A stretch of DNA of 64,000 bases, taken from positions 210,061 to 274,060 of the forward strand of contig JAJUGU010000002.1 in NCBI GenBank assembly GCA_029265815.1, read 5' to 3'. The notes beneath the pieces are model-generated. The model saw only the letters and a list, made by a program, of their open reading frames with translations, ran no database searches and was not told where the DNA came from. Shown here piece by piece: positions 122 to 27,785 of this stretch. The position numbers and the translations under genes were made by a program. Position 1 is the stretch's first letter, and each line of letters opens with the position of its first letter. The DNA comes from Anaerolineaceae bacterium (GTDB lineage Bacteria; Chloroflexota; Anaerolineae; Anaerolineales; Anaerolineaceae).

Positions 122-1810
122 ATGCACATGAACGAACCAGTTGATTCTCAATTAACTTCTTCGCCCATAGATGTATCTTTGGGGACTGCTGGAAAGGAAA
201 TCGACCAGCCTCGCCGTAGTATTTTAAACCGCATACGAATGCTTTTTTCGGATTCTTCATTGACGAAAAAAGCATCTCTAAATGCCCTGGCAAGCGGACT
301 GGAATATGCCGCCAGGCTGCTGGTAGGTTTCTTCGTGACTCCGGTTCTTGTGGCGGGATTGGGAGATTATTATTACGGTGTGAACCAGGTTTTATCTCGT
401 CTGATGGGCTACCTTCAGCCGGCTAGCGGCAGACCCACCCAGGCTCTAAAAATGAAACTCGCAAACCAACAGCTGGTTGCCGTAGATGATGAAAAGAGAA
501 AATTCGTTGGCAGCACGCTGGTGATACTGGGATATTTCCTGCCACTGACCGTGATTGCCGGCAGTTTCATCACCTGGTTTGCACCAATCTGGCTCAAAGC
601 GACACCAGAATCTTACACCACGATACGGATGGCATCAGGTGTGTTAGTTTTGAACATGATTCTCTTCAATCTTGGTAATGTGCCCCGCTCCGCATTAGAA
701 GGAGAGAATCTGGGTTACAAGCGCATGGGAATTTCTGCCTTGCTGGTGCTGGTTGGTGGGGGGTTGATCTGGCTGTCAGTAACTCTGAAAACCGGTTTGG
801 TGGGTGTGACTGTGGCAGCAGTTATATCAACATTGATATCAGGGGTCTTTTATCTATTGGTTGTGCGAAACTATGCACCATGGTTTGGCATCAGATGGGC
901 TTCACGCCAGGATAATCGCGAATTTCTAATTTTAAGCATCTGGTTCATGCTTTGGAATTTGATTAACACTCTCATGACGGCCAGTGATGTGGTCGTTCTG
1001 GGTTTGTTCAACTCCGTGCAATCAGTAACTAATTACACGTTGACCAAATATGCGCCTGAGACCACGATCAGTATCATCGCTATAGCAGTTTTCTCGATTT
1101 TGCCGGGGTTGGGTGGAATTATTGGGTCTGGTGACATGCTGAAAGCCGCGAAAGTCAGAAGCGAAATTATGTCATTCACCTGGTGGATTCTGACTGTATT
1201 TGGAGCGACCATTCTGCTCTGGAATCAAAGCTTTTTAGGCTTGTGGGTGGGGGATGAGCATTTCCCGGGTGGATTCACCAACCTGCTCATTGTGCTAATG
1301 GTCTCTCAATTCGTCATCATACGCAATGATGCCAATGTGATCGACCTGACATTAAAACTGAAACAAAAAGTCATTCTGGGGTTGGTCTCAGTGACTCTTT
1401 CCATTGGATTGGCGATTTTATTTGTTTCAGGTTTGCAGATGGGCATCCCGGGTGTGATCGCCGGGATCATGAGCGGTAGGGCAATTTTGAGTGTGGCATA
1501 TCCGTTGATTGTTGGGAAATTGATCAAAATATCGGTCTTGCAACAGGTAAAGTCTGTCTTACGACCGATTGCGGTGACGCTAGTCCTCTTTTTTGGATTT
1601 TTATTAATTGGAGATAAGCTCGCAAACTCGAATTCTTACTTAACCTCATCGTGGGTAGGACTGATCATCTCTGTCGGTTTCACTTTTCTCTGCTTGATGG
1701 TGTTGACTTTTTATGCGGGTTTCACACAAAAACAGCGTTCATCGATTCGCCATAGATTGTCAGCAATTATTGCTTCAAAAACCACAAAGGTAGCGTCTAG
1801 CGTGAAATGA
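122..1810 (+). CDS. Polysaccharide flippase-like multi-pass membrane protein (MOP/Wzx type)
   Basis: The 562-aa ORF is almost entirely hydrophobic helices (about 12-14) with no soluble domain. It is the first gene of a glycan locus. Its stop overlaps the next start (ATGA at 1807-1810). The call rests on architecture and context, not alignment. Confidence 0.65.
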   Translation: MHMNEPVDSQLTSSPIDVSLGTAGKEIDQPRRSILNRIRMLFSDSSLTKKASLNALASGLEYAARLLVGFFVTPVLVAGLGDYYYGVNQVLSRLMGYLQPASGRPTQALKMKLANQQLVAVDDEKRKFVGSTLVILGYFLPLTVIAGSFITWFAPIWLKATPESYTTIRMASGVLVLNMILFNLGNVPRSALEGENLGYKRMGISALLVLVGGGLIWLSVTLKTGLVGVTVAAVISTLISGVFYLLVVRNYAPWFGIRWASRQDNREFLILSIWFMLWNLINTLMTASDVVVLGLFNSVQSVTNYTLTKYAPETTISIIAIAVFSILPGLGGIIGSGDMLKAAKVRSEIMSFTWWILTVFGATILLWNQSFLGLWVGDEHFPGGFTNLLIVLMVSQFVIIRNDANVIDLTLKLKQKVILGLVSVTLSIGLAILFVSGLQMGIPGVIAGIMSGRAILSVAYPLIVGKLIKISVLQQVKSVLRPIAVTLVLFFGFLLIGDKLANSNSYLTSSWVGLIISVGFTFLCLMVLTFYAGFTQKQRSSIRHRLSAIIASKTTKVASSVK

Positions 1811-2922
1811 GATCTATGTATAAAAAAAAGTTGAGCATTTTTCTACCAGGTTTATACGGAGGTGGTGCGGAAAGAATCTTATTGAACCTTGCAGAAGGTT
1901 TTACCGCGCGCGGAGTGCTTGTGGATATCGTGCTTGCTCAGAAAGAAGGAGAATTCACCCGGCAGATACCTCACAAAGTCCGGCTGGTCTCCTTGCGTGA
2001 AACGCAGCGCAGTTCTTTGCGCACAATTACAGCGCTACCAGCGCTGGTGAGATATCTGAAACATGAAAAACCAGACATACTGCTTTCTGCCTTGCACGGG
2101 AACTTGATCGCTGTTTGGGCGAAATTGCTGGCGAATACGAATACAAGGGTAGTTCTCACCGAACACAATACCTTCAGCCTGGAAAACAAAGCCATGTACC
2201 CAAGAATGCAGCGCTTGAATGCTCTCCTGGTTCGGTGGTTTTATCCTTTGAGCAGTGAACTCATTGCGGTTTCAAAAGGAGTTGCAGAAGACCTGTCTGA
2301 TTCGGTTGGAATTGATCGCAACAGGATCAAAGTGATCTATAACCCAATCATCAACGACACACTGTTCGTGAAAGCCAGACGGGTTCCCGATCATCCGTGG
2401 TTTCAAAATTCTCAATACCCTATCGTGATATCCGTTGGTAGGTTAACAGAACAAAAAGATTATCCAATGCTACTTGATGCTTTTCACATCGTATCTAAAC
2501 AGGCTGCCGCCAGGTTGATCATCCTGGGGGAAGGCGAGGATCGGAATAGTCTTGAAAGAAAGGTCAAAACTCTTGGCCTCCAAGATGTTGTGTTGCTGCC
2601 CGGATTTGTGGATAATCCGTACGCATATCTGGCACACAGTTCTGTTTTTGTCCTTTCTTCAAAATGGGAGGGATTGCCGACAGTCCTCGTGGAGGCAATG
2701 GCGTGCGGTCTGCCTGTTATTTCCATGGATTGTCCTAGCGGGCCGAGGGAAATTTTGCAAAATGGAAGATACGGACGCCTGATTCCTGTTGGTGACCTCG
2801 CTGCACTATCTTCGGCTATTCTTGATGGGGTTAATGGAAAGATTTCCAGTCCTCCTCAAGAGAGCTGGGCTAATTTTACGGTGAAACATACAGTCGAACA
2901 GTATCTTTCTTTATTATTTTGA
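1807..2922 (+). CDS. Glycosyltransferase, GT4 family (GT-B fold)
   Basis: 371 aa. It carries the C-terminal signature SSKWEGLPTVLVEAMACGLPVISMDCPSGPREIL (E-x7-E) and the N-terminal GGGAERILLNLAEGF. Confidence 0.85.
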   Translation: MRSMYKKKLSIFLPGLYGGGAERILLNLAEGFTARGVLVDIVLAQKEGEFTRQIPHKVRLVSLRETQRSSLRTITALPALVRYLKHEKPDILLSALHGNLIAVWAKLLANTNTRVVLTEHNTFSLENKAMYPRMQRLNALLVRWFYPLSSELIAVSKGVAEDLSDSVGIDRNRIKVIYNPIINDTLFVKARRVPDHPWFQNSQYPIVISVGRLTEQKDYPMLLDAFHIVSKQAAARLIILGEGEDRNSLERKVKTLGLQDVVLLPGFVDNPYAYLAHSSVFVLSSKWEGLPTVLVEAMACGLPVISMDCPSGPREILQNGRYGRLIPVGDLAALSSAILDGVNGKISSPPQESWANFTVKHTVEQYLSLLF

Positions 2923-2925
2923 TCA

Positions 2926-4173
2926 ATGAAAAAAATTTCGTTTGTCTTGATGCTCTTGTTTCTTCTGACCATCCCCATTGAGGATAGCCTCGCAATTTCC
3001 TCTGAATTATCGATTAACCGTTTGATCGGAATGGTTGCGATTGGTGCATGGGGAATTTTGGTTCTAGCCAGACAGAAAATTCGCCGCGTTCATCCTTTCT
3101 TACTTTGTACATTGTTATTCATCGTATGGAATCTGTTTAGTATTTTTTGGACGATTGACCATGATTTGACCATTACCAGAATTAAAACTTATATTCAATT
3201 AGGGATCATGTGTTTCATGATATGGGACCTGGTTGACAGTAAAAAAAGATTGCGCATAGCGATTCAGACTTACATACTGGGTGCATATATATCGGTATTT
3301 GGTACGATCATCAATTTTATTAAAGGTGAAGAAGCCTATCGTTATTCAGGAGGGCGGTTTGTGGCTACAGGGTTCAATGCCAATGACCTCGCAGTTATCC
3401 TGGCGCTGGGGCTCCCACTCGCCTGGTATCTCGTCATTTCGACCATTGAGAACTCTGGAAAAAGATGGGTTGCTGTAATCAATTTGCTTTATATTCCTGT
3501 AGCATTTTTTGCAATTTTCCTCACCGGTTCTCGCGGTGGTTTTATTACGGCAATGCTCAGCCTGTGCTACATTCTGCCAACGGTGGGCCGTATGGGAAGG
3601 AAGGTGAAAATTCCGTTTAGCCTATTGATCATTGTTCTGATGATTTCAGCTTTGATGATAATTCCTGACAGCACCATGCAACGGATTATGAGCACATTTT
3701 ACTCAGGTGAGACGGATTACCTCGGCGGTAGACTTCAGATCTTCGCCGATGCAGCAGGAATTATTGATCAACATCCATTACTGGGTATTGGGAGCGGCGC
3801 ATTCAAGTCGGCAACCAGGTTCGGCACAATTGCGCATAACACATTTCTTTCGATACTCTCTGAAACTGGGATTGTTGGATTTCTCCTCTTTTGCTTTGTC
3901 CTGATCACCGCCGGTTTAGAGGCAATCAGGCATCCCAGGTACGAAGCACTTTTCTGGATAACCTTAATGGGGATGTGGGCAATCGGGGGATCATCTGTTT
4001 CATGGGATTATCAAAAGCCAACATGGTTGTTGTTAACACTGATTGTTATTAGTGGTGAATTGATATTTATTACTTCCCCTAAACAGCAGGTGACCTTCGT
4101 GAATAAAATTATCCGCATCGAACTTGTCAATCAAGGAAGCTTAGGTTCTCCTGATGTACCAATAAGAACTTAA
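2926..4173 (+). CDS. Wzy_C-domain membrane protein (O-antigen polymerase / ligase / O-oligosaccharyltransferase family)
   Basis: 415 aa with about 10 TM helices. The motifs LTGSRGGFITAML and AHNTFLSILSETGIVGFLLF are typical of the Wzy_C domain. Confidence 0.8.
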   Translation: MKKISFVLMLLFLLTIPIEDSLAISSELSINRLIGMVAIGAWGILVLARQKIRRVHPFLLCTLLFIVWNLFSIFWTIDHDLTITRIKTYIQLGIMCFMIWDLVDSKKRLRIAIQTYILGAYISVFGTIINFIKGEEAYRYSGGRFVATGFNANDLAVILALGLPLAWYLVISTIENSGKRWVAVINLLYIPVAFFAIFLTGSRGGFITAMLSLCYILPTVGRMGRKVKIPFSLLIIVLMISALMIIPDSTMQRIMSTFYSGETDYLGGRLQIFADAAGIIDQHPLLGIGSGAFKSATRFGTIAHNTFLSILSETGIVGFLLFCFVLITAGLEAIRHPRYEALFWITLMGMWAIGGSSVSWDYQKPTWLLLTLIVISGELIFITSPKQQVTFVNKIIRIELVNQGSLGSPDVPIRT

Positions 4174-4207: not shown

Positions 4208-5329
4208 ATGGATTTAAATCAGCAACGATCCATGAAAGTGATGATGGTGGGACCAGGCAGCGGGATTATTGGAGGGATTACCACTCTGGTGGATACGATT
4301 CTTCCGCACGTGAATTCTCGTGTTCAATTATATTATTTTCCCACTGTCTCGAACCGCCCTTCGAAAAAGTCTGGTAAATTTTCCTTCAAGAATCTGATGA
4401 TTGCCATTGAGCAAATTTCAAGATTCTTGCGATCAATTAAGAAATTTCGTCCTCACCTTCTACATATTCACACGTCGCAAGGGATTGCCTGGCTAAAAGA
4501 TACGGCATATATCTGGGTCGGAAAAATGATGAAGAGTAAGGTGGTCGTTCATATCCATGCTGCAGACTTTACTGAGCTTTACACCAATCATTCAAAACCA
4601 GTACAGGCATACACTCGTTATATGTTGAATAAGGCGGATGCAGTGATCGCTGTTTCAGATAAATGGAGGGAAAAATTATCATCTATTGTCACTAAAGCAA
4701 AGATACACACCTTCATGAATTGCATCCAGATCCCTGATGAGACCACTGTTCATCCATCTGACCGAACGCTTTCATACGGGCTTTTTCTGGGGAGCATTGG
4801 TCCGCGTAAGGGTGCATTTGACCTGATCGATGCTGCCGGCCGCATAGGCCAAAATGGGAATGGATTCCATATCTGGCTGGCTGGATATGAGGAGCGCCAG
4901 GGTGACCTGGAAATTGCCCATCAGAAACTGGAGGAGCACTCATTAAAAGATCGCTGTGAGCTGGTGGGGGTTGTGACCGGGTCTAAAAAACATGATTACC
5001 TGCAACAAATGGATTTCTTTGTTCTACCTTCATATAATGAAGGGCTGCCAATGGCAATTCTGGAAGGAATGGCTCAAGGGCGTGCGATCATCTCTACACC
5101 AGTGGGGGGAATTCCCGAGGTGGTGATCGACGGATATAACGGGTATCTTGTGGAGCCGGGCGATGTTCAGACTCTGGCTGAAAAGATCAACACTCTTGTT
5201 AACCACCCTGATCTATGCAATCAGATGGGCTTAAATAGCCTTGAAATTGCTAAACAAAAGTTGTCTGTTCAAACTTACGTTAACTGCCTGATGAACGTCT
5301 ATGAGGGCTTGATCATCGAATGCACGTGA
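4208..5329 (+). CDS. Glycosyltransferase, GT4 family
   Basis: 373 aa with the signature PSYNEGLPMAILEGMAQGRAIISTPVGGIPEVV. An alternative start is at MKVMMVG (4232). Confidence 0.85.
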   Translation: MDLNQQRSMKVMMVGPGSGIIGGITTLVDTILPHVNSRVQLYYFPTVSNRPSKKSGKFSFKNLMIAIEQISRFLRSIKKFRPHLLHIHTSQGIAWLKDTAYIWVGKMMKSKVVVHIHAADFTELYTNHSKPVQAYTRYMLNKADAVIAVSDKWREKLSSIVTKAKIHTFMNCIQIPDETTVHPSDRTLSYGLFLGSIGPRKGAFDLIDAAGRIGQNGNGFHIWLAGYEERQGDLEIAHQKLEEHSLKDRCELVGVVTGSKKHDYLQQMDFFVLPSYNEGLPMAILEGMAQGRAIISTPVGGIPEVVIDGYNGYLVEPGDVQTLAEKINTLVNHPDLCNQMGLNSLEIAKQKLSVQTYVNCLMNVYEGLIIECT

Positions 5330-5420: not shown

Positions 5421-6434
5421 ATGAACCGGCAAAATCCCACGCTTGGAAACATGAAAGTCCTGGTCACTGGCGGGGCAGGTTTTATTGGAAGCTCGCTGGT
5501 GAAGAAACTGGTGAATGACGGCACAGATGTGGAGGTTATTGACAATCTCTGGCGAGGGAGTTTGAAAAACCTTCAATCGACTGATGGTAAATTAGTATTG
5601 AAATCTGAGTCAAAATTTCACCTGGCGGATTTAACTGATGCAGCCAAATGTCTGGAAATTATTCGCGGTTTTGACCTTGTTTATCACCTGGCAGATATCG
5701 TGTGCGGCGTTCAATTCGCGTTTGACAACGAATTATTTATCTTTCGGCAAAACATTTTAATTAATACCAATGTTCTTGCAGCCTGCATTCTTAACAAAAT
5801 CCCGAATTATGTTTATGTAGGTACTGCTTGCAGTTTTCCAAAGTATTTACAAATGGCCGATGGGATTGCAGCACTGAGAGAGGATCAAACTTACCCGGCT
5901 GAACCGGAATCTTCCTATGGCTGGAGCAAGCTGATGGGAGAATACGAGGCGCTGCTCGCAGCGAAATCAAACTCAATCAATGTGGGTGTATTGCGGTTTC
6001 ATAATGTTTATGGCCCAGGCGTGTCAATCGAACAAACACGCGCGCAGGTGATTCCATCATTGATCATGAAGGCGATTCGATTCCCTGCAGAGCCGTTTAT
6101 TGTTTGGGGAAGTGGAAATCAGTATCGCGATTTTGTGTACATTGACGATATTGTGGAAGCTCTGATCCTCGTTGTCAACCATGGCATGAATCAGGGTGTG
6201 ATACAGGTTGGATCTGAAAAGCCCACATCCGTTCGTGATCTCGCGGAAAAAATCATTGAGATCAGCGGAAAACCGATTACTGCCGTTTACGATGCCACCA
6301 AACCGGAAGGTGATCGCGGCCGCGTGGCCATTTGTGACAGAGCACGCCAAATACTGGGTTGGAAAGCAACTACAGATCTTGAAACCGGTCTGAAGGCGAC
6401 CTATGATTGGATTTTTAAACAATCGAGTCATTAA
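5421..6434 (+). CDS. NAD-dependent NDP-sugar epimerase/dehydratase (extended SDR)
   Basis: 337 aa with the Rossmann motif GGAGFIGSSLV and the catalytic YGWSK (YxxxK). Confidence 0.85.
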   Translation: MNRQNPTLGNMKVLVTGGAGFIGSSLVKKLVNDGTDVEVIDNLWRGSLKNLQSTDGKLVLKSESKFHLADLTDAAKCLEIIRGFDLVYHLADIVCGVQFAFDNELFIFRQNILINTNVLAACILNKIPNYVYVGTACSFPKYLQMADGIAALREDQTYPAEPESSYGWSKLMGEYEALLAAKSNSINVGVLRFHNVYGPGVSIEQTRAQVIPSLIMKAIRFPAEPFIVWGSGNQYRDFVYIDDIVEALILVVNHGMNQGVIQVGSEKPTSVRDLAEKIIEISGKPITAVYDATKPEGDRGRVAICDRARQILGWKATTDLETGLKATYDWIFKQSSH

Positions 6435-6467: not shown

Positions 6468-7757
6468 ATGAAACTGCATGTGTTGATTCTGACGCATCAT
6501 TTCTACCCTGAATTTGGCGGAGGGGCAACCATGCAATATGAGCTGGCGAAGCATCTGGCGGCTTCTGGTCATCAGGTGACGGTGATCACTCCGATCCCAT
6601 ATCATCACATGATATCAGTGGATATACCTGAGCCCAGTCGAGATGAAAATCTCGATGGGTTTCATGTGATCCGCGTCAAATCGCATGGAACAATAAAAGG
6701 ATCTCTGATCGCACGAGCTATTTGCGAAGTTCTGACGGATATCGATATTTTGTTCAGAGGAATAAAGGTAAAACCCGTTGATATTCTTTACATCATGCCC
6801 CCACCCATTACTTTGCCATTTCTTGCAGCACTCATAAAATGGGTTCGAAAATCGAAAATGATTTTATTCCTTCAAGACACATTTCCAGAATTCCTGATTT
6901 CTATGAATTTGTTGTCTCGTAAGAATATCTGTTTCAAAATTGCGCGTATGATCGAAAAAATGGCTTATTGGAATGTAGATTACCTGGGAGTGCATTCTCC
7001 AAAAAACAAGGCATACATCATCAGCCGCGGTGTCAGCGAGGGCAAGGTGCACGTAATTCCTCTTTGGGCAGACACCGATTTCTTAAACGTGAAACAGCGA
7101 CCTGCTCAATTTTTAAACACATACCAACTGGATCATAAATTTGTCGTGATGTATGCCGGCACCATTGGATTTGCCATTGGCGCAAAAACGCTCCCCCAGG
7201 CTGCAAAAATACTGGAAGGGGAAAAGGATATCCAATTCATCGTGATTGGAGGGGGGAACAAGAAGAACGAGATGCAGGAGGAAATGGACCGGTTAGGCAC
7301 CACGAATATCATGTTGTTTTCGCCTATACCGAGGGAGGAATTGCCCGGGGCATTGGCGTCAAGTGATATTCTGCTGGTGATGTTGAGAAAAGAACAAAGC
7401 AATAATCCCAATGGATATTTTAAGGCGGTCATTCCACACAAAATGCTCTCGGATATGGCAAGTGGCAGATCTATTTTGCTTTCAGCTGAAATGGACTCAA
7501 ATGCTGCGGACCTGGTGCGGATTGCCAATTGTGGGTTAACAGTCCCACCTGAAGATCCAGCGGCTCTGGCTGAAGCGATTCTAAAAATGAAACAGGATGA
7601 AAAACAACGAGCGTTGTGGGCGAAGAATGGATATGAGTTTGCACGGAGACATTTCAGCTCATCGCGGCAGGTGCTGAAAATGGAGGAGATGTTCATCAGT
7701 GTTGTGGCTGGTTTACCATACCAGTTCAATGATCCCTGGCACCCTGAATCTAATTAA
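6468..7757 (+). CDS. Glycosyltransferase, GT4 family (WbuB/WcaI-like)
   Basis: 429 aa. The N-terminus HHFYPEFGGGATMQYELAKHLAASGHQVTVIT resembles WbuB/WcaI-type GT-B enzymes. Confidence 0.75.
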   Translation: MKLHVLILTHHFYPEFGGGATMQYELAKHLAASGHQVTVITPIPYHHMISVDIPEPSRDENLDGFHVIRVKSHGTIKGSLIARAICEVLTDIDILFRGIKVKPVDILYIMPPPITLPFLAALIKWVRKSKMILFLQDTFPEFLISMNLLSRKNICFKIARMIEKMAYWNVDYLGVHSPKNKAYIISRGVSEGKVHVIPLWADTDFLNVKQRPAQFLNTYQLDHKFVVMYAGTIGFAIGAKTLPQAAKILEGEKDIQFIVIGGGNKKNEMQEEMDRLGTTNIMLFSPIPREELPGALASSDILLVMLRKEQSNNPNGYFKAVIPHKMLSDMASGRSILLSAEMDSNAADLVRIANCGLTVPPEDPAALAEAILKMKQDEKQRALWAKNGYEFARRHFSSSRQVLKMEEMFISVVAGLPYQFNDPWHPESN

Positions 7758-10292: not shown

Positions 10293-10301
10293 GAGTCATC
10301 C

Positions 10302-11234: not shown

Positions 11235-11239
11235 AATTT

Positions 11240-11788
11240 GTGAATTCAAAGGATTTGAACATGGTAACCAACAGAGATTGTCAACTGGGGCAATTGAATC
11301 AAAACAGCAGGCGGATATGGTTTGAGACTAATCACCCGCAAGGTTTTATTCTATTCATCCTATCAAAGGTATGGAATCGAGGAGTAAAACCATTTCGAGC
11401 GTGGTTGTTCCGTCTTTTTCAACCAAAAAAGGTCAACCGCAAACAGCCATCTACTTCTCAATGGGTTGACTCCAATCCAGTCGAATTTCATCCTGGTGAT
11501 ATCGTTCGAGTCAGAACAAGGGAAGAGATCGAACCCATGCTGGATGCAGACAGGAAGTTCCGCGGTTGTACTTTCCTGGATTGTATGTGGGCATATTGTG
11601 GGACGACACAAAAGGTGTTTAAGCCCTTGCATCGCTTTCTTGATGAACGCGATTTTAAGTATAAAAGAGTTAATGGTGTCGTCATCCTCGAAGGAGTCTT
11701 CTGTGACGGCGTTTTAGTTTTTGGGCAATGTGACCGCAGTTGTTTTTTGTTCTGGCGCGAAGAATGGCTGGAAAAGCTTTCGTCGTAG
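11240..11788 (+). CDS. Hypothetical Cys-rich protein
   Basis: 182 aa with a GTG start (alternative ATG at 11270). The C-terminal half is Cys-rich (GCTFLDCMWAYCG ... FCDG ... GQCDRSC). It is tightly packed between its neighbours. I recognised no family. Confidence 0.5.
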   Translation: MNSKDLNMVTNRDCQLGQLNQNSRRIWFETNHPQGFILFILSKVWNRGVKPFRAWLFRLFQPKKVNRKQPSTSQWVDSNPVEFHPGDIVRVRTREEIEPMLDADRKFRGCTFLDCMWAYCGTTQKVFKPLHRFLDERDFKYKRVNGVVILEGVFCDGVLVFGQCDRSCFLFWREEWLEKLSS

Positions 11789-19519: not shown

Positions 19520-19542
19520 AGTGAAATTGAAAAGGAGGGAAT

Positions 19543-20253
19543 ATGAAAGGGGTAGTGCTCGCTGGTGGGAAAGGCACCCGGCTCGCACCTTATACAAAGA
19601 TCTTGCCAAAGCCATTGATGCCGATTGGGGATATGCCGATCCTGGAAGTGATCCTTCATCAGATGAAGGTGGCAGGCATTCATGATGTGGTGCTTACTGT
19701 TGGGCATCTTTCTGAATTACTCCATGCTTTCTTCAATGACGGGAGTCGTTTTGGTTTACATATAACCTACAGTTTTGAAGATAAACCACTGGGAACTGCT
19801 GGACCCATTGCATTAATTAAAGATTTGAATGAGACATTCCTGGTGACAAACGGCGATGTCTTAACCACGCTCGATTTTCGCGATTTGATCCAATTTCATA
19901 AATCTCAGCATGCGATCACGACTATTGCTGCTCACCGACGTCAAGAGAAAATCGATCTCGGTGTGATCCAATTCAATGGTACCTCGCAGGTGATAGGGTA
20001 TTCTGAGAAACCGACTTTTGACTTTATGGTGAGCATGGGTATCTATGTTTTTGAACCGGAAGTGTTGAATTATATTCCTGCGGGGGAATACCTTGATTTT
20101 CCCGATCTTGTGAAGAAAATGGTCGCCGCAGGAGAACGAGTGGTGGGATTGCCGTTTAATGGGTATTGGCAAGATCTGGGAAGACCCGCAGATTATGAAC
20201 GCGCTGCGATCGATTTTGAAAATATGCGGCATGAATTTCTCAAGGAGGAATAG
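19543..20253 (+). CDS. Sugar-1-phosphate nucleotidyltransferase
   Basis: 236 aa starting MKGVVLAGGKGTRLAPYTKILPKPLMPIG. A strong SD (aaggaggg) lies upstream. Confidence 0.85.
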   Translation: MKGVVLAGGKGTRLAPYTKILPKPLMPIGDMPILEVILHQMKVAGIHDVVLTVGHLSELLHAFFNDGSRFGLHITYSFEDKPLGTAGPIALIKDLNETFLVTNGDVLTTLDFRDLIQFHKSQHAITTIAAHRRQEKIDLGVIQFNGTSQVIGYSEKPTFDFMVSMGIYVFEPEVLNYIPAGEYLDFPDLVKKMVAAGERVVGLPFNGYWQDLGRPADYERAAIDFENMRHEFLKEE

Positions 20254-20255
20254 GG

Positions 20256-21398
20256 ATGACGTGGCGTATTCCGCTGGCTGATGTTAATCTCGGTGAAGAA
20301 GAAGTTTCAGCGGTCACCAGTGTGTTAAGAAGCCGCTGGTTAACAATGGGAGCAGTCACTCAAGAATTTGAGGAGGCTTTCAAGGACTATTCAGGTGCGA
20401 AGTATGCGCTTGCTGTGACCAATGCCACAACCGCGCTGCATATGGCTTGCCTTGCTGCAGGTTTGAAGTCGGGTGATGAGGTTATCCTCCCGTCTTTGAC
20501 TTTTGTGGCAACGGCAAATGCAATTTGCTACACAGGTGCTACTCCGATTTTTGCTGAAATCTGTGGGGAAAATAATCTGAATATAAGTGTCAAATCGATC
20601 GAGTCTAAGATTACCTCAAAAACTCGCGCAATCATGGTTGTGCATTATGGTGGATATGCCTGTGACATGCCGGAAATCATGCGCATAGCTGATGCTCATG
20701 GATTGACCGTGATAGAAGATGCTGCACACGCCAGCGGGTCATTTCTTGACTCGAGGATGCTTGGAACCTGGGGCAAGGTCGGCTGCTACAGCTTCTTTTC
20801 GAATAAGAACATGACTACAGGCGAAGGGGGAATGGCAGTTACGAATGATAAAAATATTTTTAAAAAATTATCGCTTATCCGCTCTCACGGAATGACCAGC
20901 CTGACCTGGGACCGGCACAGAGGGCATGCATGGAGTTATGATGTTGTTGACCTCGGATACAACTATCGAATCGATGAAATGCGGGCGGCTGTTGGTTTGG
21001 TGCAATTACGTAAGCTGGATTCGTTCAATGAAAAACGACGGCAAATCACCAATTTGTATATCGATCTATTGCACGAATTTTGCCCGGAAATCACAATTCC
21101 ATTTGAAAACCACCCCGGTAACTCAGCCTGTCATCTGTTCGTGATTCTGTTACCTGAAGGAATTGATCGATCAGGTTTCATGGAACAGATGAAATCTGCA
21201 GGAATACAAACCAGTATTCATTATCCATTAATCCATAAGTTTACTTATTATAAAAACGATCCATTGGTTGCGTGTCAAAATTTGCCATTAACTGAAAAGA
21301 TAGCTGAGCGTGAAGTTACTCTTCCGCTTTACCCAGGATTAACGGAAGAAGATGTGATCTACATCGTTCAAACGATCTCGCGAGCACTTCATCGTTAA
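20256..21398 (+). CDS. DegT/DnrJ/EryC1 family NDP-sugar aminotransferase (canonical)
   Basis: 380 aa with VIEDAAHASGS and GCYSFFSNKNMTTGEGGMAVTND (PLP Lys plus GEGG box). Confidence 0.9.
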   Translation: MTWRIPLADVNLGEEEVSAVTSVLRSRWLTMGAVTQEFEEAFKDYSGAKYALAVTNATTALHMACLAAGLKSGDEVILPSLTFVATANAICYTGATPIFAEICGENNLNISVKSIESKITSKTRAIMVVHYGGYACDMPEIMRIADAHGLTVIEDAAHASGSFLDSRMLGTWGKVGCYSFFSNKNMTTGEGGMAVTNDKNIFKKLSLIRSHGMTSLTWDRHRGHAWSYDVVDLGYNYRIDEMRAAVGLVQLRKLDSFNEKRRQITNLYIDLLHEFCPEITIPFENHPGNSACHLFVILLPEGIDRSGFMEQMKSAGIQTSIHYPLIHKFTYYKNDPLVACQNLPLTEKIAEREVTLPLYPGLTEEDVIYIVQTISRALHR

Positions 21399-21413: not shown

Positions 21414-24400
21414 TTGCTGGAGGACAAAATGGAATTCAAGGATGTTGTTAAGTTTATCATCCGGCATTATCGAATCCTCATATTGGGTTTGATCCTTGGT
21501 GGAGCCATGGGGTTGATCTATACCCTTTCATCTCCTGCGCCATACGAAGCCACTTCCAAAATTCTGATTAGTCGTAACAAGTCAGATAAAGAGTCTGATT
21601 TTGGGTATTTGACTGACCAGCAATTAATCCAGACGTACGCTTACATTCTAAAAACGCGGCCTATTCTGGATCTGGTAAATGCACAAATTAATGGGAAGGT
21701 TGATCCAGATAATGTTCGTGTAAGCCAGGTTGCAGATACTTTGATCCTCCAGATCGCAGTGCGTGATCAAAATCCCCAAAAAGCCGCCTATATCGCGAAC
21801 GCATTTGCCAAAGCTATGGTTACCCGCAGCAATCAGTTGCAGGAAGAGCAATACAAACTCGAAGAAGCGGGGTTAACCAGCCAGATCAATTCCATCCGCA
21901 CCCAGATCGATGAACTGCAGGCACAATACGACAATCGTGAAATTACCGTCAATCAATCGATTATAGATGATGTCGATAAACAGATCCTGGCGTATCGTAA
22001 CGAAATACTGACACTACAGAAAGAAATCTCGCTGATTAAAACTCCCACTAATCTGGAACAGGAATCTTATATCATTGAGCGAAAAACCAGGTTAGAAGAA
22101 ATACAGCCATTGCTGGTAATGTATCAGGAAATCCGTACCAACCTTGAATATCTCGGAAGACCATATCAAAGTGGAAGCGCGCCTGAAGATACGACATTGT
22201 CACGACTAAAAACCACAATCGATCAATACCAGGAGGTAAACCTGACACTCTTGAATTCGTTAGAGAAGATTCGATTGGAAAAAGTGCAAAGTGAACCTAC
22301 AGTACAGACTATCGAGGAAGCGGCTGTTCCGACTGACAGAACTTCTCTAGTGTTTGTGATGAATCCGGTAATCGCAAGTGGAGTTGGATTAATCATTGCC
22401 ATACTCTTAGGGCTGTTCCAGGATCGTAAGGGATTGAAGGTTGCCAACCAGCAACAACTATTAAAGAACCTGGGGCTAGAAGTCGTTGGTTCTATTCCAC
22501 CAATTCCTGCCTTAAAAGGTAATGCAGGACTTAATTCAAATATTTCTGTGGAAGATGAGGAAATGAAGCCGTTTCATATCTTGCGAGCTTTCCTCGAATT
22601 TCACAGAATCAGAAATCCATACAAGAGCCTGCTTGTTACAAGCTTTGCCATTGGTGATGGTAAATCAACTGTAGCGTCTGCTCTGGCAGTTAATTATGTT
22701 CTGGGCGGCGACCCTATCGTTCTGGTGGATGCCAATTTTTCGAATGCCAGTCAACATATCTGGTTTAGAACGGGAAAAGATACAGGGTTGAGTGACATTC
22801 TTTATCGAAATCAAGCGTTTGATAAGCAATTCCTCAAGAATACCTCTTTTGAAAATCTTAAAATTCTCACGGCTGGTGAGTATTCGCCGATATCCATGCA
22901 GTTGATCGATCCACAGAAAATGGTAGAACTCCTTAAGAACGCTGAAAATGCTTTAAAACTTGTCATTGTTGACGGTCCCCCATTATCAGATCTCAACGCA
23001 ATGCTGTTAGCATCTGCAGTGGATAAAATCCTTTTAGTGATTCGTACGGGAGTCTATGCGTTGGATGGATTGGCAGAGACTCTCAACGATCTAGGAGTTG
23101 ATCGGAATAAGATTCTGGGTGTTGTTCTTAATGAACCAGTACCTGGGGCGGCTGAAATTTCTTTTGGAGAGGATGAAATTTCTACTCGTAAATTTGAAGA
23201 AACACGTCTTGAACTGAATGTCATCAGTGAAGCCAAGTCGTCTTCTCAACCTTTGAATGAAGAATTGGTTCGATTGGATATTTCTTCTGAAAATGACCAA
23301 TCATTAATGACTGGAGAACCAGAAATCATGCCGTCACAACCGAAGGGTGGTGATGAACCGGGTGTCGTCGATCAATCTGAATTCGTATCTGATTCTTCAC
23401 AAGAACATGTCGTGTCACGTTTGTTCCATTTCCCGGGGATTTTTGGGAGAAAGCAAGAGAAGAATGTGGGCATTTCTTCTGCTGACGTACCTCGAGAAAA
23501 AACAGATGGACAAATAGATGAAAGGGTTGAACCTTTTCTTTCTGAAGATGTTTCCATTCAATCCACAGGTGAGAATCCTATTGATGATATGCCAGCAATC
23601 TCGCAGGGATTAGATGAAACCAGATCTATCCTATCCTGGTTAAAATTCTGGCGAAAACCTAAGGAGCCAGAAACAACCAGAACCAATGATTTGACTGGAG
23701 AACTACCTGAAAAGATCGAAGGTAATGAAATAAAAACAGACGATAGCAAGTTATCTGACCTGGTTGAAAATGGATCTTCCTCATCGATCTTTCAAATTTC
23801 GAGTAGTAAAAAAGACTCTGAAAGGAATTTTGACCCCAATACAAACCTAACTGATTCCCTGACGGAGATTATAAATCCAGTAAAACAGGCTCGAGATCCA
23901 ATTTTTGAGAAGGTTAAACATTCGTTGGATCCATTATGGAACCAACTGCAAAAGGTAATGCAGGCGAAGAAAGGAATGACCGCAGAAACTGAAGTGGTTG
24001 ATAAAGTGAATAGGATAATGGCTTCAGAACTTGAAACACAGATGCCTGAAGAAGTCGCTCTGGATAGTCAAAAAAAGATGGGCGTTGTTGACGAACCTCA
24101 AACCCAAATCAAGCCAAAGCGAACCAAAAAAGAGGTGGTGTTAACCGATACACAACTGGAGATTCCGGTAATTGTTGAGGCGACTGGGAGCAATAAAAAA
24201 TCTTCTAAAGTAAGCGGAGAATCAAAATTATTCGATGAGGCAGTCAGTTCTAAAAAGAGAGCAAGCAGAGGCAGACCACGAAAAAATCAAGAACAGGAAC
24301 TCGAACCTGATGTTCTAATAACGAGTTCCACACAATTTAAATCCAGTGTCCGTGGCAAGCATGGAAAGGATCAGATTTCCAACACTATTGCGGAAAAAAC

Positions 24401-24626
24401 CAAGAATGCTGATACGGCTAACCTTAAAAAGAAAAACAGCGCCAAGAAAATCAGCGGGGTAACCGCTGGTTCTAACGCAGTGGAAAATCTTTCTAAACCA
24501 CACAAAACGGGTTCCAGTGCAGTCAAGAAAAAATCACCACCATCATCATCTTCGAAAAAGACAGCCAAAGAAAAGAAGAAAGTTGTTATTGGTGCAGATC
24601 TAAACTCACGAGATCATGAAATCTGA
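21414..24626 (+). CDS. Polysaccharide co-polymerase (Wzz-like) fused to a BY-kinase/MinD-type P-loop ATPase domain, with a long disordered C-terminal extension
   Basis: 1070 aa from a TTG at 21414; the more likely start is ATG 21429. TM1 is ILILGLILGGAMGLIY, followed by a coiled-coil region and TM2 VIASGVGLIIAILLGLF. Walker A is SFAIGDGKST (22653-22670), Walker A' is VLVDAN and Walker B is LVIVDGPP. The last ~490 aa are rich in S, K and E. Confidence 0.8.
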   Translation: MLEDKMEFKDVVKFIIRHYRILILGLILGGAMGLIYTLSSPAPYEATSKILISRNKSDKESDFGYLTDQQLIQTYAYILKTRPILDLVNAQINGKVDPDNVRVSQVADTLILQIAVRDQNPQKAAYIANAFAKAMVTRSNQLQEEQYKLEEAGLTSQINSIRTQIDELQAQYDNREITVNQSIIDDVDKQILAYRNEILTLQKEISLIKTPTNLEQESYIIERKTRLEEIQPLLVMYQEIRTNLEYLGRPYQSGSAPEDTTLSRLKTTIDQYQEVNLTLLNSLEKIRLEKVQSEPTVQTIEEAAVPTDRTSLVFVMNPVIASGVGLIIAILLGLFQDRKGLKVANQQQLLKNLGLEVVGSIPPIPALKGNAGLNSNISVEDEEMKPFHILRAFLEFHRIRNPYKSLLVTSFAIGDGKSTVASALAVNYVLGGDPIVLVDANFSNASQHIWFRTGKDTGLSDILYRNQAFDKQFLKNTSFENLKILTAGEYSPISMQLIDPQKMVELLKNAENALKLVIVDGPPLSDLNAMLLASAVDKILLVIRTGVYALDGLAETLNDLGVDRNKILGVVLNEPVPGAAEISFGEDEISTRKFEETRLELNVISEAKSSSQPLNEELVRLDISSENDQSLMTGEPEIMPSQPKGGDEPGVVDQSEFVSDSSQEHVVSRLFHFPGIFGRKQEKNVGISSADVPREKTDGQIDERVEPFLSEDVSIQSTGENPIDDMPAISQGLDETRSILSWLKFWRKPKEPETTRTNDLTGELPEKIEGNEIKTDDSKLSDLVENGSSSSIFQISSSKKDSERNFDPNTNLTDSLTEIINPVKQARDPIFEKVKHSLDPLWNQLQKVMQAKKGMTAETEVVDKVNRIMASELETQMPEEVALDSQKKMGVVDEPQTQIKPKRTKKEVVLTDTQLEIPVIVEATGSNKKSSKVSGESKLFDEAVSSKKRASRGRPRKNQEQELEPDVLITSSTQFKSSVRGKHGKDQISNTIAEKTKNADTANLKKKNSAKKISGVTAGSNAVENLSKPHKTGSSAVKKKSPPSSSSKKTAKEKKKVVIGADLNSRDHEI

Positions 24627-24647
24627 GAAAATACCTCAATTTAGAAA

Positions 24648-24794: not shown

Positions 24795-24932
24795 ATGAAG
24801 CAAATTATTGTGATCTTGATTTGTTTTTGCTTACTGGCATTGCCAATGTCTGTAAGTGCTGATATCGCTCCTCCGGCTGAACCACCCGGAGCGAACCCTA
24901 AACCTGGTAATGAATCAACCCAGGTACGATGA
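24795..24932 (+). CDS. 45-codon ORF encoding only a signal peptide plus a Pro-rich spacer, possibly the detached N-terminus of the next gene
   Basis: My own translation reads MKQIIVILICFCLLALPMSVSADIAPPAEPPGANPKPGNESTQVR*. The ORF is below the track cutoff. Its TGA (24930-24932) overlaps the ATG (24929-24931) of the next ORF. Confidence 0.5.
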   Translation: MKQIIVILICFCLLALPMSVSADIAPPAEPPGANPKPGNESTQVR

Positions 24933-26233
24933 CTTCCGAGATGATTCTGATTGAAATCCTTGAGGATACTTCAATGGAATCCCGGTATGTTGCTACAGCC
25001 ACTGCCGGTCAAGAACCAGAGACCCTTGGCCTCGCCAAAGTAACAGCGAGTTTTAATATGCGCAATCTTGGAAAGTTACCTGAAACTATGGCGGTCCGGT
25101 TTCCTGTGGGGACAGATGATGGCAGAGGAAATAATGTTGAACTGCGGGATGTGAAGATTGCAGTTGATGGAATGCCGGTCAATATGCGCAGGATCATGGC
25201 TGAAGATCCGTTAGAGAGGGTACCGCAGGTACCGTGGGTAGAATTTGATGTATTATTCCCGGTACAGACAGATGTGGTCATTAAAGTGCAGTACATTCTT
25301 GAGGCAGCCGGTGAGCTGCCCTATATACGATTTGATTACGTGTTTTCTACCGGGGCTGCATGGAAAGGAACGATCGGAAACGCCGAGCTGACGGTTCGTT
25401 TCCCTTACAAGGTAAATATATTGAATTACATTCCCGGCAGTGAATATGGAAATGTACGTTATATCCCGGGGGGGATCCGCTGCGAGAATCAGATCAACTG
25501 GGTGTTCACCAATTTCGAACCAGATGCCGATGACAATTTTTCAATTACCCTTGCGGCTCCATCTGTCTGGCAGCAAATTCTTCTGGAGCAAAGCCGGGTA
25601 AAAGCCAATCCTGATGATAGTGAAGCCTGGGGTAGGCTTGGGAAGTTGTATAAATCTCTGGTGATGTCTTCGCATGGTGGTAGAGGTTTTAGGGATTATG
25701 TACTAGAGGAAGACCCGGGTGTACAGGAATTGTTTGATCTTGGTGTTAACGCTTATGAGAATGCAATTACACTTGCACCCGATGATGCTTTGTGGCATGC
25801 CGGTTACGCAGAACTGCTGGGGTTTTACGCTTATCACGCAAAATATGAAGGGATTGACACAGCGCAAATTACAACAAGGGCTCTTGAGCAGATTAAACTT
25901 GCGTTAGATCTAGATTCCGAAAATGAAACAGTCAGGGATATTGAATACACTCTGGAGTTTTATTTCCCGCAGGGGATTGTGAGCGAAAATGGCGTATACG
26001 ATTTTCCATGGCTGACAAGAACTCCTGTAATTGAGACCATGACCGTAACATCAACTGATCTGACCGCTATACCAACAATGACTTCCGAAATTATCCATCT
26101 TACAGATACCCCGATGCCCTCAACAACCCCGGAGGTGGAGCAGCAGGACAATCTTCCGCTCTGCGGCACATTATTGCTGGTGCCGTTTATCTTGTTAATC
26201 GGATTGAAACTTCAAAAAACGAAACTACATTAG
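24929..26233 (+). CDS. Exported/anchored protein with a beta-rich N-domain, a TPR-like helical region, a Thr/Pro-rich stalk and a C-terminal TM anchor
   Basis: 434 aa with no signal peptide of its own. It carries the TP-rich segment TVTSTDLTAIPTMTSEIIHLTDTPMPSTTPE. The C-terminus is LPLCGTLLLVPFILLIGLKLQKTKLH. Confidence 0.7.
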   Translation: MTSEMILIEILEDTSMESRYVATATAGQEPETLGLAKVTASFNMRNLGKLPETMAVRFPVGTDDGRGNNVELRDVKIAVDGMPVNMRRIMAEDPLERVPQVPWVEFDVLFPVQTDVVIKVQYILEAAGELPYIRFDYVFSTGAAWKGTIGNAELTVRFPYKVNILNYIPGSEYGNVRYIPGGIRCENQINWVFTNFEPDADDNFSITLAAPSVWQQILLEQSRVKANPDDSEAWGRLGKLYKSLVMSSHGGRGFRDYVLEEDPGVQELFDLGVNAYENAITLAPDDALWHAGYAELLGFYAYHAKYEGIDTAQITTRALEQIKLALDLDSENETVRDIEYTLEFYFPQGIVSENGVYDFPWLTRTPVIETMTVTSTDLTAIPTMTSEIIHLTDTPMPSTTPEVEQQDNLPLCGTLLLVPFILLIGLKLQKTKLH

Positions 26234-26243
26234 AATTGTATTT

Positions 26244-27785
26244 ATGAACCTCCAACATAGAAGAAAATTAGCAATCGTTGCTGTCATATTCCTTGCATTG
26301 GTATTGATAAGAATTCCATTTTATCTAACACACCATATCCAGGAAGATGCATACATTACACTACGTTGTGCAAAAAACCTGGCCGAAACGGGAATTTACG
26401 GGTACAACCCGGGTGAACGTGTTAGTGCATCGACATCTCATCTTTATGTGTTTCTCGCTGCAATCGTGCGTTTGGTAGCAGGTAAAAACGCTTTCATAAC
26501 GGTTGTACAGGTGGTCAATACTATTCTGTTTGTTGCGGGTAGTTATTTCTTGGCGAGAGTGCTTCAAAAACCCGGAAAAGGGATGTTAATACTCTGGATC
26601 ATTCTATCTTTGCTTCCGGTATCTCTATTGATCAGCTATTCAGGGATGGAGACCTCTCTTCTGATTTTCATGGTCGGATTGGTTTTGTATCTGTTGCACG
26701 AACAACAGTACCATTGGCTGGCATTATTGAGTTTTGCAATGATTCCCTGGGTGCGACCGGATGCAATTGCCTGTTCTTTGATTATCCTGTTCTGGGTATC
26801 GATTCGTAGCGGTAAACCTCGCTTTGACCTGGCAGGAGCTGTACTTGCAGGGATAGGAACTTTTTTTGCCTTTAATTGGCTTTATTTTGGTGCTTTTCTC
26901 AACAATTCTATTCTTGCTAAAGAACAGAGCCGGCCTGCATTTTCAGTAGAACGGGTTTTTTCCACAGTAAAAACGGTTTTCTTTGGTGAGAATGGAGGAT
27001 TATTTACCCCCATCCGAACCAAATATCTGGATCATTTCGGAGTGGTCTTTCTGTTATTGGTGGCTGTTGGGATGATTATTTTCATAATTCAATATCGTAA
27101 TAACAGGCAGGTATTCTATTCGGGTCTGTCGATTATTAGTATGGCCTTGCTAATCCCAGCCGCTTATTCTTTGGGTAGGGTTGTCTTTCCATGGTACTTC
27201 TGGCCAGCAACATTCTTTGGATACGCCATTGTTTGTGCCTTGGTGGTTGATTGGCTATCAAAAAGTCGCAAAGGATACAGGCTGGCGAGTGTCATCATTG
27301 GATTGGCGGTCTTGGGGGGAATGGCTGCTCAATGGTGTTACTCGTATAGCTGGGGAATGAAGGAATATGCCTACCGGGGAGAGATCGGGATGAAACTGGC
27401 TGAATTAGCCCGTGAGAATGACACACTGTTTCTTGAACCCGCAGGGTATATCCCGTATTATTCTGGTTTGTATACATACGATGAAGCCGGATTGGGATCT
27501 CCACTAATATTACATTATCGAGATCTTTATCAGACACCATGGTGGATCCGGTTTGTCGAGGATGCACAACCGGATTGGATCATCCAACGAGAACATTTTA
27601 AGGAATTTACGACTTATCAGGGATATATATTAAACGAGACCGAACAAAGGTGGTTTTTAGACCAATACCATTTAGTAGCTGAAATTTCATATCAACCACA
27701 AGATTTCACTACGCAGCCCTTTCTGGTAAGGCTGCTATCCATGGGATCGGCTGACAGTTACCTGATCTATGAGATCAATAGATAG
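26244..27785 (+). CDS. Large polytopic membrane protein, putative GT-C-fold glycosyltransferase
   Basis: 513 aa with more than 10 TM helices. The first-loop motif QEDAYITLRCAKNLAETGIYGYNPGERVSASTSHLY resembles the acidic first-loop motif of GT-C enzymes. It has a soluble C-terminal domain. Confidence 0.5.
   Translation: MNLQHRRKLAIVAVIFLALVLIRIPFYLTHHIQEDAYITLRCAKNLAETGIYGYNPGERVSASTSHLYVFLAAIVRLVAGKNAFITVVQVVNTILFVAGSYFLARVLQKPGKGMLILWIILSLLPVSLLISYSGMETSLLIFMVGLVLYLLHEQQYHWLALLSFAMIPWVRPDAIACSLIILFWVSIRSGKPRFDLAGAVLAGIGTFFAFNWLYFGAFLNNSILAKEQSRPAFSVERVFSTVKTVFFGENGGLFTPIRTKYLDHFGVVFLLLVAVGMIIFIIQYRNNRQVFYSGLSIISMALLIPAAYSLGRVVFPWYFWPATFFGYAIVCALVVDWLSKSRKGYRLASVIIGLAVLGGMAAQWCYSYSWGMKEYAYRGEIGMKLAELARENDTLFLEPAGYIPYYSGLYTYDEAGLGSPLILHYRDLYQTPWWIRFVEDAQPDWIIQREHFKEFTTYQGYILNETEQRWFLDQYHLVAEISYQPQDFTTQPFLVRLLSMGSADSYLIYEINR

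Follow-up and report, generated by a model that had tools for sequence, protein, structure and literature searches.

Glycan-assembly genes that enclose a gene for a large secreted protein with long Thr/Pro-rich tracts raise the question of whether that protein is the acceptor of the glycan or a partner that meets the finished polymer outside the cell. The case at hand is a 64,000-nucleotide stretch of the genome of an Anaerolineaceae bacterium (contig JAJUGU010000002.1, positions 210,061 to 274,060), which we call the window and number from its first nucleotide. An initial annotation of this DNA had proposed that a glycan island within it O-glycosylates the Thr/Pro-rich proteins that it encodes, in the manner of an S-layer glycan (slg) locus. 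Our analysis leads elsewhere: positions 122-24626 very probably constitute an exopolysaccharide/capsular polysaccharide (EPS/CPS) operon of the Wzx/Wzy-dependent type, and the 1,395-aa protein encoded in its midst (12749-16936) is probably a partner of the polymer rather than its acceptor, with binding or trimming as its likely role. The slg-like proposal gained no support, since linkage to glycan genes follows the propeller and carbohydrate-binding module (CBM)-like parts of this protein, and profile searches of the island proteins returned no slg-type O-oligosaccharyltransferase (O-OTase), no Wzm/Wzt exporter and no S-layer target.

A secreted double-propeller protein encoded within a glycan operon

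By the ORF listing and profile searches, the glycan cluster starts at 122 and comprises 17 co-directional genes ending at 24626, with intergenic gaps of -8 to 101 bp. The first half encodes, in order, a Wzx-like protein, a GT4 glycosyltransferase, a Wzy_C protein, a GT4 enzyme, an epimerase, a third GT4 enzyme, two DegT-like proteins, two family-less proteins, and a CysK-type enzyme; the second half encodes the 1,395-aa secreted protein, a Bac_transf-type priming polyprenyl-phosphate glycosyl-phosphotransferase (PGT), a 4,6-dehydratase-type short-chain dehydrogenase/reductase (SDR), a nucleotidyltransferase, a DegT protein, and a polysaccharide co-polymerase (PCP) in which Wzz is combined with a BY-kinase-like domain. 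The gene for the 1,395-aa protein lies mid-operon, with flanking gaps of 51 and 35 bp. With two further genes downstream the total comes to 19 ORFs, the gaps being too small for extra genes; the 23 genes counted earlier from the flippase onward are therefore too many, although their common direction and tight packing were correctly seen. Nor does the row end in one strong terminator at 27786: a second hairpin with a T-run at 24643-24677 splits off the last two genes and, together with the 302-bp gap between the end of the PCP gene and the following 434-aa ORF, indicates two transcription units rather than one. The segment 24796-27785, with the 434-aa ORF and a GT-C-like gene, is hence a separate backbone unit outside the island.

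The secreted protein is divided as follows.

12749..14461, + strand: signal peptide and two tandem beta-propellers (AlphaFold2 [AF2] mean pLDDT 83.7; NHL repeat matches)
14462..14614, + strand: Thr/Pro-rich linker 1 (by composition)
14612..15463, + strand: PKD (K319L-like) domain and domain X, copy 1 (K319L-like_PKD 58.6 bits; X by AF2)
15437..16114, + strand: Thr/Pro-rich linker 2, ~220 residues (maximal Thr+Pro fraction 0.65; tandem repeat inside)
16115..16936, + strand: PKD domain and domain X, copy 2 (two PKD stretches; X2 50% identical to X1)

A signal peptide and two tandem beta-propellers are followed twice by a PKD domain plus a CBM-like domain, here termed X. The propeller model was built on an alignment of 28 homologues, and Foldseek ranks the tandem YWTD propellers of LRP6/LRP2 highest among its matches in the Protein Data Bank (PDB). 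A search with the N-terminal 590 residues yielded 643 homologues, many of which carry PF06977, often at faint or sub-threshold scores; the window protein itself reaches NHL (24.7-28 bits) and not PF06977. Invariant Asp, Glu, and Asn residues are numerous among the homologues, chiefly in the second propeller. Domain X (185 residues) is modeled as a beta-sandwich (AF2 pLDDT 77); it has no Pfam match even at E ≤ 5, and a PDB sequence search gave nothing usable. The nearest PDB structure is 8wab (E = 4e-4; TM 0.49-0.52), the CBM with which a chondroitinase binds chondroitin sulfate; the likeness is modest, with a TM of about 0.5, 18% identity, and a model that is partly of low confidence. At the corresponding C-terminal position, the propeller homologues carry CBM96 (up to 203.8 bits), CBM_4_9, InhA-like MAM, or TIG domains, of which CBM96 has been described as an alginate-binding module (PMC9971899). 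Domain X also travels with propellers in other phyla, there without Thr/Pro linkers. Profile searches of the 1,395-aa protein gave no SLH or S-layer family match. This predicted succession of modules, joined by linkers, is one expected of a secreted protein that binds or acts on glycans. Propeller genes are often tandemly duplicated in 2-4 copies with differing C-terminal modules (e.g., 9983-21764 in L041 and 5101-13754 in L005, and likewise in L030, L037, and L050; comparison loci are designated by L numbers), which suggests diversification of the non-propeller ends.

The association of this protein with glycan genes extends well beyond the window. A scan for loci with such proteins, limited to a single genome per GTDB species, yielded 78. 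One of these, L003 (Anaerolineaceae bacterium R77_208), has 85% DNA identity and is colinear across window positions 2747-24574, which makes it too close a relative to test conservation. In the more distant L084, the propeller, PGT, dehydratase, NTP-transferase, DegT, and PCP genes occur in the same order, and exact look-ups of propeller homologues placed three out of three inside polysaccharide clusters. With phmmer and the proteins of this window only, at least one EPS-type gene was detected within 10 kb in 41 of 80 loci and at least two in 28 of 80. These neighbors lie on the strand of the propeller gene in 67 of 70 cases and account for 15.7% of the ORFs within 2.5 kb of it versus 6-7% farther away, counts that stand without a random-locus control, so that the size of the enrichment is gauged against general expectation. 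The priming transferase, of an unusual ~520-aa type, frequently adjoins the propeller gene. Propeller members are present in glycan clusters of KSB1, Gemmatimonadota, Desulfuromonadaceae, and Binatia besides Chloroflexota, and at least six phyla share the linkage between propeller and glycan cluster. The synteny on which the initial annotation had staked its Thr/Pro-rich proteins is thus found for the 1,395-aa protein, whose homologues are co-directional inside polysaccharide clusters of many genomes. The titles and abstracts returned by a literature search describe no EPS-associated SdiA-regulated/YjiK beta-propeller proteins.

Several details of these loci deserve mention. ORFs of ~520 aa that match the priming enzyme adjoin propeller genes in L005, L017, L027, L030, and L077, and in L084 the propeller gene is followed by that of a 519-aa PGT of the same type. 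In a bin assigned to Pyrinomonadaceae (Acidobacteriota), a Wzz/kinase-like gene lies beside the propeller gene. The regions 860-19073 of L018 and 1130-9833 of L002 encode several sulfotransferases, a bifunctional ATP-sulfurylase/APS kinase, a UDP-glucose dehydrogenase, a type I phosphodiesterase, and an APH-like kinase; many Chloroflexota propeller loci are apparently sulfated-polysaccharide clusters.

Might the co-location nonetheless be meaningless, with the 1,395-aa protein an unrelated secreted enzyme or adhesin (e.g., for nutrient scavenging) inserted in a variable island? Glycan loci fill about 57% of the 64-kb window, and 39 of the 80 homologue loci lack an EPS-type match in the above test. 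However, the latter are mostly contigs of <7 kb, and detection relied on the families of this window, which misses cluster genes: the neighbors in L018 include sulfotransferases, PAPS synthase, UDP-glucose dehydrogenase, and more GT4 enzymes, and L002 is similar. The mid-operon position with its short flanking gaps, the recurrence of the arrangement across phyla, and the co-directional neighbors, densest within 2.5 kb, further argue against an accidental insertion, which we consider improbable.

We then come to the tracts themselves, defined as Thr/Pro-rich where a 40-residue window holds at least 45% Thr+Pro. Three of the 51 scored ORFs of the window qualify (12749-16936, 24929-26233, and 61726-62514). 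These are exactly the three proteins that the initial annotation had singled out as Thr/Pro-rich, exported, and located in glycan loci; their composition is as it stated, but the 434-aa protein (24929-26233) lies outside the operon unit and has no signal peptide as called. Because glycan loci make up ~57% of the window, the chance that all three would fall in them is about 0.2, which is unremarkable. Among the homologues of the 1,395-aa protein, those from Chloroflexota mostly have a maximal Thr+Pro fraction of 0.55-0.80 per 40 residues (about a dozen loci are at ≤0.47), and those from KSB1, Gemmatimonadota, Desulfuromonadaceae, Jettenia, Binatia, and unclassified sources are at ≤0.45, the exceptions to this lineage pattern being one locus labeled Pyrinomonadaceae and one labeled Gammaproteobacteria. 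Tract-poor homologues nevertheless reside in glycan clusters (L005, L017, L020, L024, L065, and L068), those from KSB1, Gemmatimonadota, Desulfuromonadaceae, Binatia, and unclassified bacteria reaching a maximal fraction of ≤0.40, and the presence of a tract tracks lineage rather than cluster membership. In the sequences compared, the conserved partner of the glycan locus thus appears to be the propeller with its CBM-like modules and not the Thr/Pro tract. Other Thr/Pro-rich ORFs are few in the Chloroflexota loci (4 of 397).

The tracts are situated exactly between folded domains. Between the window and L003 the folded domains are kept, while linker 1 has a 24-residue insertion in L003 and the second tract lacks >40 residues there. 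The missing stretch covers a tandem repeat (15820-16027; 48-nt unit × 4.3, 99% matches by TRF) that encodes TPTATVTLTPTVTDDP; its absence from a relative with 85% identity points to a recent expansion of the linker. Since they are placed between folded domains and vary by indels and repeats between close orthologues, we read the tracts as what look to be flexible, lineage-specific, fast-evolving inter-domain linkers. In this they resemble the Pro/Thr linkers of secreted glycoside hydrolases (PMC3490864), which likewise lie between folded domains and vary in length among orthologues; unlike those hydrolases, the present protein has at its N terminus a double propeller, itself uncharacterised, in place of a known glycoside hydrolase domain.

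Assembly genes and the role of the Wzy_C protein

The other genes of the operon are the following.

122..1810, + strand: Wzx-like polytopic membrane protein, putative flippase, 562 aa (Polysacc_synt 23.6 bits; Pfam cut-off 28.2)
1807..2922, + strand: GT4 glycosyltransferase (Glycos_transf_1 121.8 bits, Glyco_transf_4 93.6 bits)
2926..4173, + strand: Wzy_C-domain membrane protein, 415 aa (Wzy_C 71.9 bits), likely repeat-unit polymerase by context
4208..5329, + strand: GT4 glycosyltransferase (Glycos_transf_1 110.6 bits)
5421..6434, + strand: NAD-dependent sugar epimerase/dehydratase (Epimerase 164.7 bits)
6468..7757, + strand: GT4 glycosyltransferase (Glycos_transf_1 52.4 bits, Glyco_transf_4 45.2 bits)
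7837-9012 and 9114-10292, + strand: two paralogous DegT/DnrJ/EryC1-like PLP enzymes (DegT_DnrJ_EryC1 179.8 and 166.2 bits)
10302..11788, + strand: two family-less proteins, 310 aa and 182 aa (homologues beside propeller genes in L001 and L003)
11801..12697, + strand: CysK/CysM-type PLP enzyme (PALP 241.5 bits, TIGR01136 365 bits)
16972..18531, + strand: priming PGT (Bac_transf 195.5 bits, residues 28-221; CoA_binding_3, residues 392-478; TIGR03025 254.7 bits)
18524..21398, + strand: NDP-amino-sugar module of SDR, nucleotidyltransferase, and DegT (GDP_Man_Dehyd 235.8 bits, NTP_transferase 155.7 bits, DegT 402.1 bits)
21414..24626, + strand: Wzz co-polymerase fused to a BY-kinase-like P-loop domain, 1,070 aa (Wzz 30.8 bits, AAA_31 33 bits)

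Pfam and NCBIfam profiles matched each of the priming PGT, Wzy_C, Wzz/BY-kinase-like, and NDP-amino-sugar components named in the initial annotation and, with the GT4 enzymes, bear out its description of a Wzx/Wzy-type glycan-assembly locus. Of its four GT-B transferases, Pfam places three GT4/GT-B enzymes in the island; the fourth (56230-57477) belongs to a second glycan locus. The Wzx-like protein gave no match in an NCBIfam search, and its homologues precede GT4 and Wzy_C genes in L041 and L070. The Wzz match of the co-polymerase passes its cut-off, TIGR01007 (102.7 bits) lies just under its own of 108, and a Walker A motif is present in the BY-kinase-like domain.

The Wzy_C protein is the point at which an O-glycosylation system and a polymer-producing one part ways. 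In the former, the island would glycosylate proteins, and the protein encoded at 2926-4173 would move a lipid-linked glycan en bloc onto the Thr residues of the tracts. Thr-rich tracts are plausible O-glycan acceptors, and the conserved linkage of the 1,395-aa gene to glycan clusters also counts for this reading. The best NCBIfam match of the Wzy_C protein is to a family titled 'putative O-glycosylation ligase', and there is a weak match to TfpM, but both scores are far under their cut-offs (PEP_O_lig_1 68.6 bits against 188; TfpM 29.5 bits against 600). A Pfam search at E ≤ 0.01 found no PglL_A, Wzy_C_2, or TPR in this or any other island protein, and a PDB sequence search found no relative of it. 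It is moreover the sole Wzy_C gene of the island, in a Wzx-GT4-Wzy_C block that recurs in L041 and L070 and is accompanied here by a PCP/BY-kinase-like gene; it is hence needed as the polymerase, and its use as an OTase would leave the island without one. Repeat-unit polymerase, the parsimonious role in this context, is thus its most likely function. The acceptor side fares no better, since propeller homologues without tracts are still found in glycan clusters and the 434-aa protein is outside the unit and not syntenic with the island.

Comparison with characterised slg systems points the same way. The Wzy_C domain is common to PglL, PilO, WsaB, and WsfB (PMC2943079), which favors an O-glycosylation role, and the island resembles the slg clusters of Geobacillus stearothermophilus and Paenibacillus alvei in its WbaP-family primer, its Wzy_C protein, a nearby candidate target, and its lower GC content. 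However, characterised slg clusters use Wzm/Wzt ABC export and have separately transcribed S-layer genes, and their dedicated O-OTase either contains a TPR motif, as WsfB does, or has a TPR protein as its partner, as WsaB has in WsaA (PMC2943079). Here we find instead a Wzx-like protein, a PCP/BY-kinase-like protein, one small (415-aa) Wzy_C protein, and a candidate 'target' in mid-operon; profile searches of the 19 island proteins detected no ABC-transporter (Wzm/Wzt) family and no S-layer-type domain. Taken together, we judge it very unlikely that the island is a protein O-glycosylation system.

Other properties of the operon are more incidental. The priming enzyme has a domain order reversed relative to WbaP, with an N-terminal catalytic Bac_transf domain followed by transmembrane segments and a CoA_binding_3-like domain. 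The co-polymerase ends in a low-complexity tail of ~490 residues rich in Lys, Ser, and Glu; its L084 homologue has 881 aa. Positions 7837-12697 form an unusual tailoring block inside the cluster. The paired DegT-like genes in it have ~66% nucleotide identity to each other, and the 310-aa and 182-aa proteins have no Pfam (even at E ≤ 5) or NCBIfam match. A DegT gene and then a family-less 316-aa gene also precede the propeller homologue P0003. GC content is 44.5% in the island and 46.5% in the backbone. The lower GC that the initial annotation had noticed by eye is right in direction but marginal and not significant (per-gene Mann-Whitney p = 0.11); with a difference of 2 GC points, a reading as a compositional island was rejected as weak.

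Border genes and the second glycan locus

Downstream of the operon, the window contains the following features.

24643-24677, + strand: intrinsic-terminator-like hairpin (15-pair stem with T-run) that closes the EPS unit
24796..26233, + strand: gene with a frameshift, for an exported protein of 478 aa that has a short Thr/Pro stalk and a C-terminal anchor (fused orthologue in L081)
26244..27785, + strand: GT-C-like polytopic membrane protein, backbone gene (weak match to AftB-type arabinofuranosyltransferase)
27787-27813, no strand assigned: bidirectional terminator-like hairpin (hairpin search)
61726..64000, + strand: lipoprotein with Thr/Pro tether, Wzz-like protein (Wzz 21.8 bits), and N terminus of a Wzy_C protein (trio in L085-L087)

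A 44-codon ORF in another frame (24796-24931) supplies what the 434-aa ORF lacks: it encodes a signal peptide and DIAPPAEPPGANP, and its TGA shares nucleotides with the ATG at 24929. L081 has an orthologue of 478 aa that combines the same signal peptide with a Thr/Pro-rich stalk and a C-terminal anchor in one protein; since it is a single ORF there, the window copy carries a 1-nt frameshift, either true (a pseudogene) or an assembly error. After the stalk, members of this family end in PLC[GA], a hydrophobic helix, and a basic tail (window 26130-26233; L081 9900-10001), a C terminus that resembles a sorting or anchoring signal in its sequence. In L081, the 478-aa gene and the GT-C-like gene are followed, as in the window, by DUF3887, SHOCT-like, and 208-aa genes and are preceded by SpoIIE, peptidase, and LysM genes rather than a glycan cluster. 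Conversely, no 478-aa gene separates the glycan cluster of L084 from the GT-C-like gene, which is its immediate neighbor. The synteny once expected of the 434-aa protein thus fails, as it is present without the island in L081 and missing from the island-bearing L084. The GT-C-like gene, which is next to DUF3887/SHOCT genes in both L081 and L084, is a backbone gene that borders the variable island. Of its earlier description as a GT-C-like membrane protein of the island, the first part has weak profile support, from an NCBIfam match over the N-terminal 130 residues (E = 1.6e-5; 23.1 bits against a cut-off of 1050), and the second is not borne out, the gene being part of a separate unit.

The second glycan locus (55104-64000) includes GT4, heparinase II/III-like, and fused ADH-Gfo/Idh/MocA oxidoreductase genes and, transcribed divergently from these, the genes for a tethered lipoprotein, a kinase-less Wzz, and Wzy_C. 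The last three genes form a trio that is conserved in L085-L087, where the Wzy_C protein has 466-489 aa. The fragment 63395-64000 itself has no Pfam match (even at E ≤ 5) and no BLASTP similarity to the island Wzy_C protein; we assign it as the N terminus of a Wzy_C protein because the orthologues at its position in L085-L087 belong to that family, which upholds the earlier description of a Wzy_C-like gene beside a Thr/Pro-rich lipoprotein and a Wzz-like gene. The conserved part of the lipoprotein is a 120-residue C-terminal domain, whereas the composition of the tether varies: some orthologues have a Thr/Pro-rich one, others an acidic or Ser/Glu-rich one. The locus is fixed in Anaerolineaceae between ThiF/PIG-L and PAP2/PfkB/RecX genes; it is compact and core-conserved at this backbone position, unlike the variable island.

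These genes bear on a further explanation, in which the linkers would be O-glycosylated by a general enzyme independent of the island (either the GT-C-like protein of 26244-27785, acting as actinobacterial Pmt does on Pro/Thr linkers, or the core Wzy_C protein from 63395 on) and the island would make EPS only. The GT-C-like gene is conserved in the backbone and directly follows the 478-aa stalked protein in L081, and its distant homologues are labeled RgtA/B/C/D-like, i.e., as GT-C enzymes, in UniRef. The core Wzy_C gene adjoins that of the tethered lipoprotein, and its surroundings contain neither a Wzx nor a priming transferase gene; the linkers between the catalytic domain and CBM of cellulases are reported to be glycosylated (PMC3490864). 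However, the GT-C-like protein has no Pfam match, including to PMT or PMT_2, and no PDB sequence match. In L084 its gene adjoins a glycan cluster and not a stalked protein, and in L083 a 39%-identical homologue is part of a different glycan cluster that also includes UbiA and epimerase genes, which fits a polysaccharide-modifying GT-C enzyme. The material examined holds no glycoprotein evidence for the lineage, and a literature search returned nothing relevant on glycosylation of Thr/Pro linkers in Chloroflexota. We regard this explanation as unlikely.

A polymer and its probable secreted partner

For the EPS/CPS operon with its secreted partner, the family memberships of the encoded proteins suggest the following pathway. 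The priming transferase (16972) would start the repeat unit on polyprenyl phosphate, to which the three GT4 enzymes would add sugars, including one of the NDP-4-amino-6-deoxyhexose type supplied by 18524-21398. The genes between 5421 and 12697 (DegT-like, CysK-like, and family-less) would probably tailor the sugars further. The Wzx-like protein would then flip the unit, the single Wzy_C protein would polymerise it, and the Wzz/BY-kinase-like protein would control polymerisation and export. Outside the cell, the 1,395-aa protein may bind, cross-link, or trim the exported polymer, as a partner and not an acceptor.

This scheme has its closest counterpart in the EPS/CPS operons of monoderm bacteria (eps of lactic acid bacteria and cps of Streptococcus pneumoniae, with CpsC/CpsD). 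These too run in one direction, are packed, have a slightly lower GC content than their flanks, and combine a Bac_transf primer, GT4 enzymes, NDP-sugar genes, a flippase-like protein, Wzy_C, and Wzz with a P-loop kinase-like protein. Unlike in eps and cps, Wzz and the kinase-like domain are here fused and bear a low-complexity tail of ~490 aa with no evident Tyr cluster, the catalytic domain of the priming enzyme is N-terminal, and the operon adds a CysK-like enzyme, two extra DegT-like proteins, two family-less proteins, and the 1,395-aa secreted protein. For the last of these there are precedents. Cluster-encoded glycanases of other EPS systems are one for a polymer-acting secreted protein. 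Another is the RbmC/Bap1 system of Vibrio cholerae, in which the beta-propeller has Vibrio polysaccharide (VPS) as its ligand and rbmC is flanked by the vps clusters (PMC10102183). As in vps-rbm, a secreted modular propeller protein with lectin- or CBM-type domains is encoded amid EPS genes. The analogy is a functional one, binding having been demonstrated for RbmC/Bap1 alone, and the architectures differ, with two tandem propellers of the six-blade type and PKD plus X accessory domains here versus one eight-bladed propeller there.

Several points weigh against the reading as a whole. The Wzx assignment is below the Pfam threshold. To our knowledge, sequence alone does not sort Wzy_C proteins into polymerases, ligases, and O-OTases. 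The C-terminal Tyr cluster expected of a BY-kinase is not evident in the sequence of the kinase-like domain. The propeller family is biochemically uncharacterised, and Foldseek searches with the double propeller returned >1,000 generic propellers, none of them enzyme-specific, such that lyase, hydrolase, and binder are inseparable by this means. The modest resemblance of domain X to a CBM and the uncontrolled neighbor counts add to these reservations. With all this taken into account, we favor, with moderate confidence, an EPS/CPS operon that carries the gene for its cognate secreted polymer-binding or polymer-trimming protein. An extension that we consider quite improbable at present is that the double-propeller proteins with PKD and CBM-like domains would be previously undescribed, multi-phylum extracellular partners of Wzx/Wzy, and often sulfated, EPS clusters; in its boldest form, they would be the covalent protein cores of bacterial proteoglycans, onto which the polymer of the cluster would be transferred, with the Thr-rich linkers as attachment sites in Chloroflexota.

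Thr/Pro tracts encoded beside glycan genes in Chloroflexota are, on the above grounds, not evidence of a protein-glycosylation system. The EPS locus is in itself routine, and its interest lies in the double-propeller proteins, a large and uncharacterised family whose genes are embedded in polysaccharide clusters and share their orientation. Should these proteins indeed act on the polymer by binding, cross-linking, or trimming it, they would represent a widespread matrix-organising component, from which EPS loci and matrix proteins could be predicted in filamentous bacteria that live uncultured in sludge, sediment, and soil.

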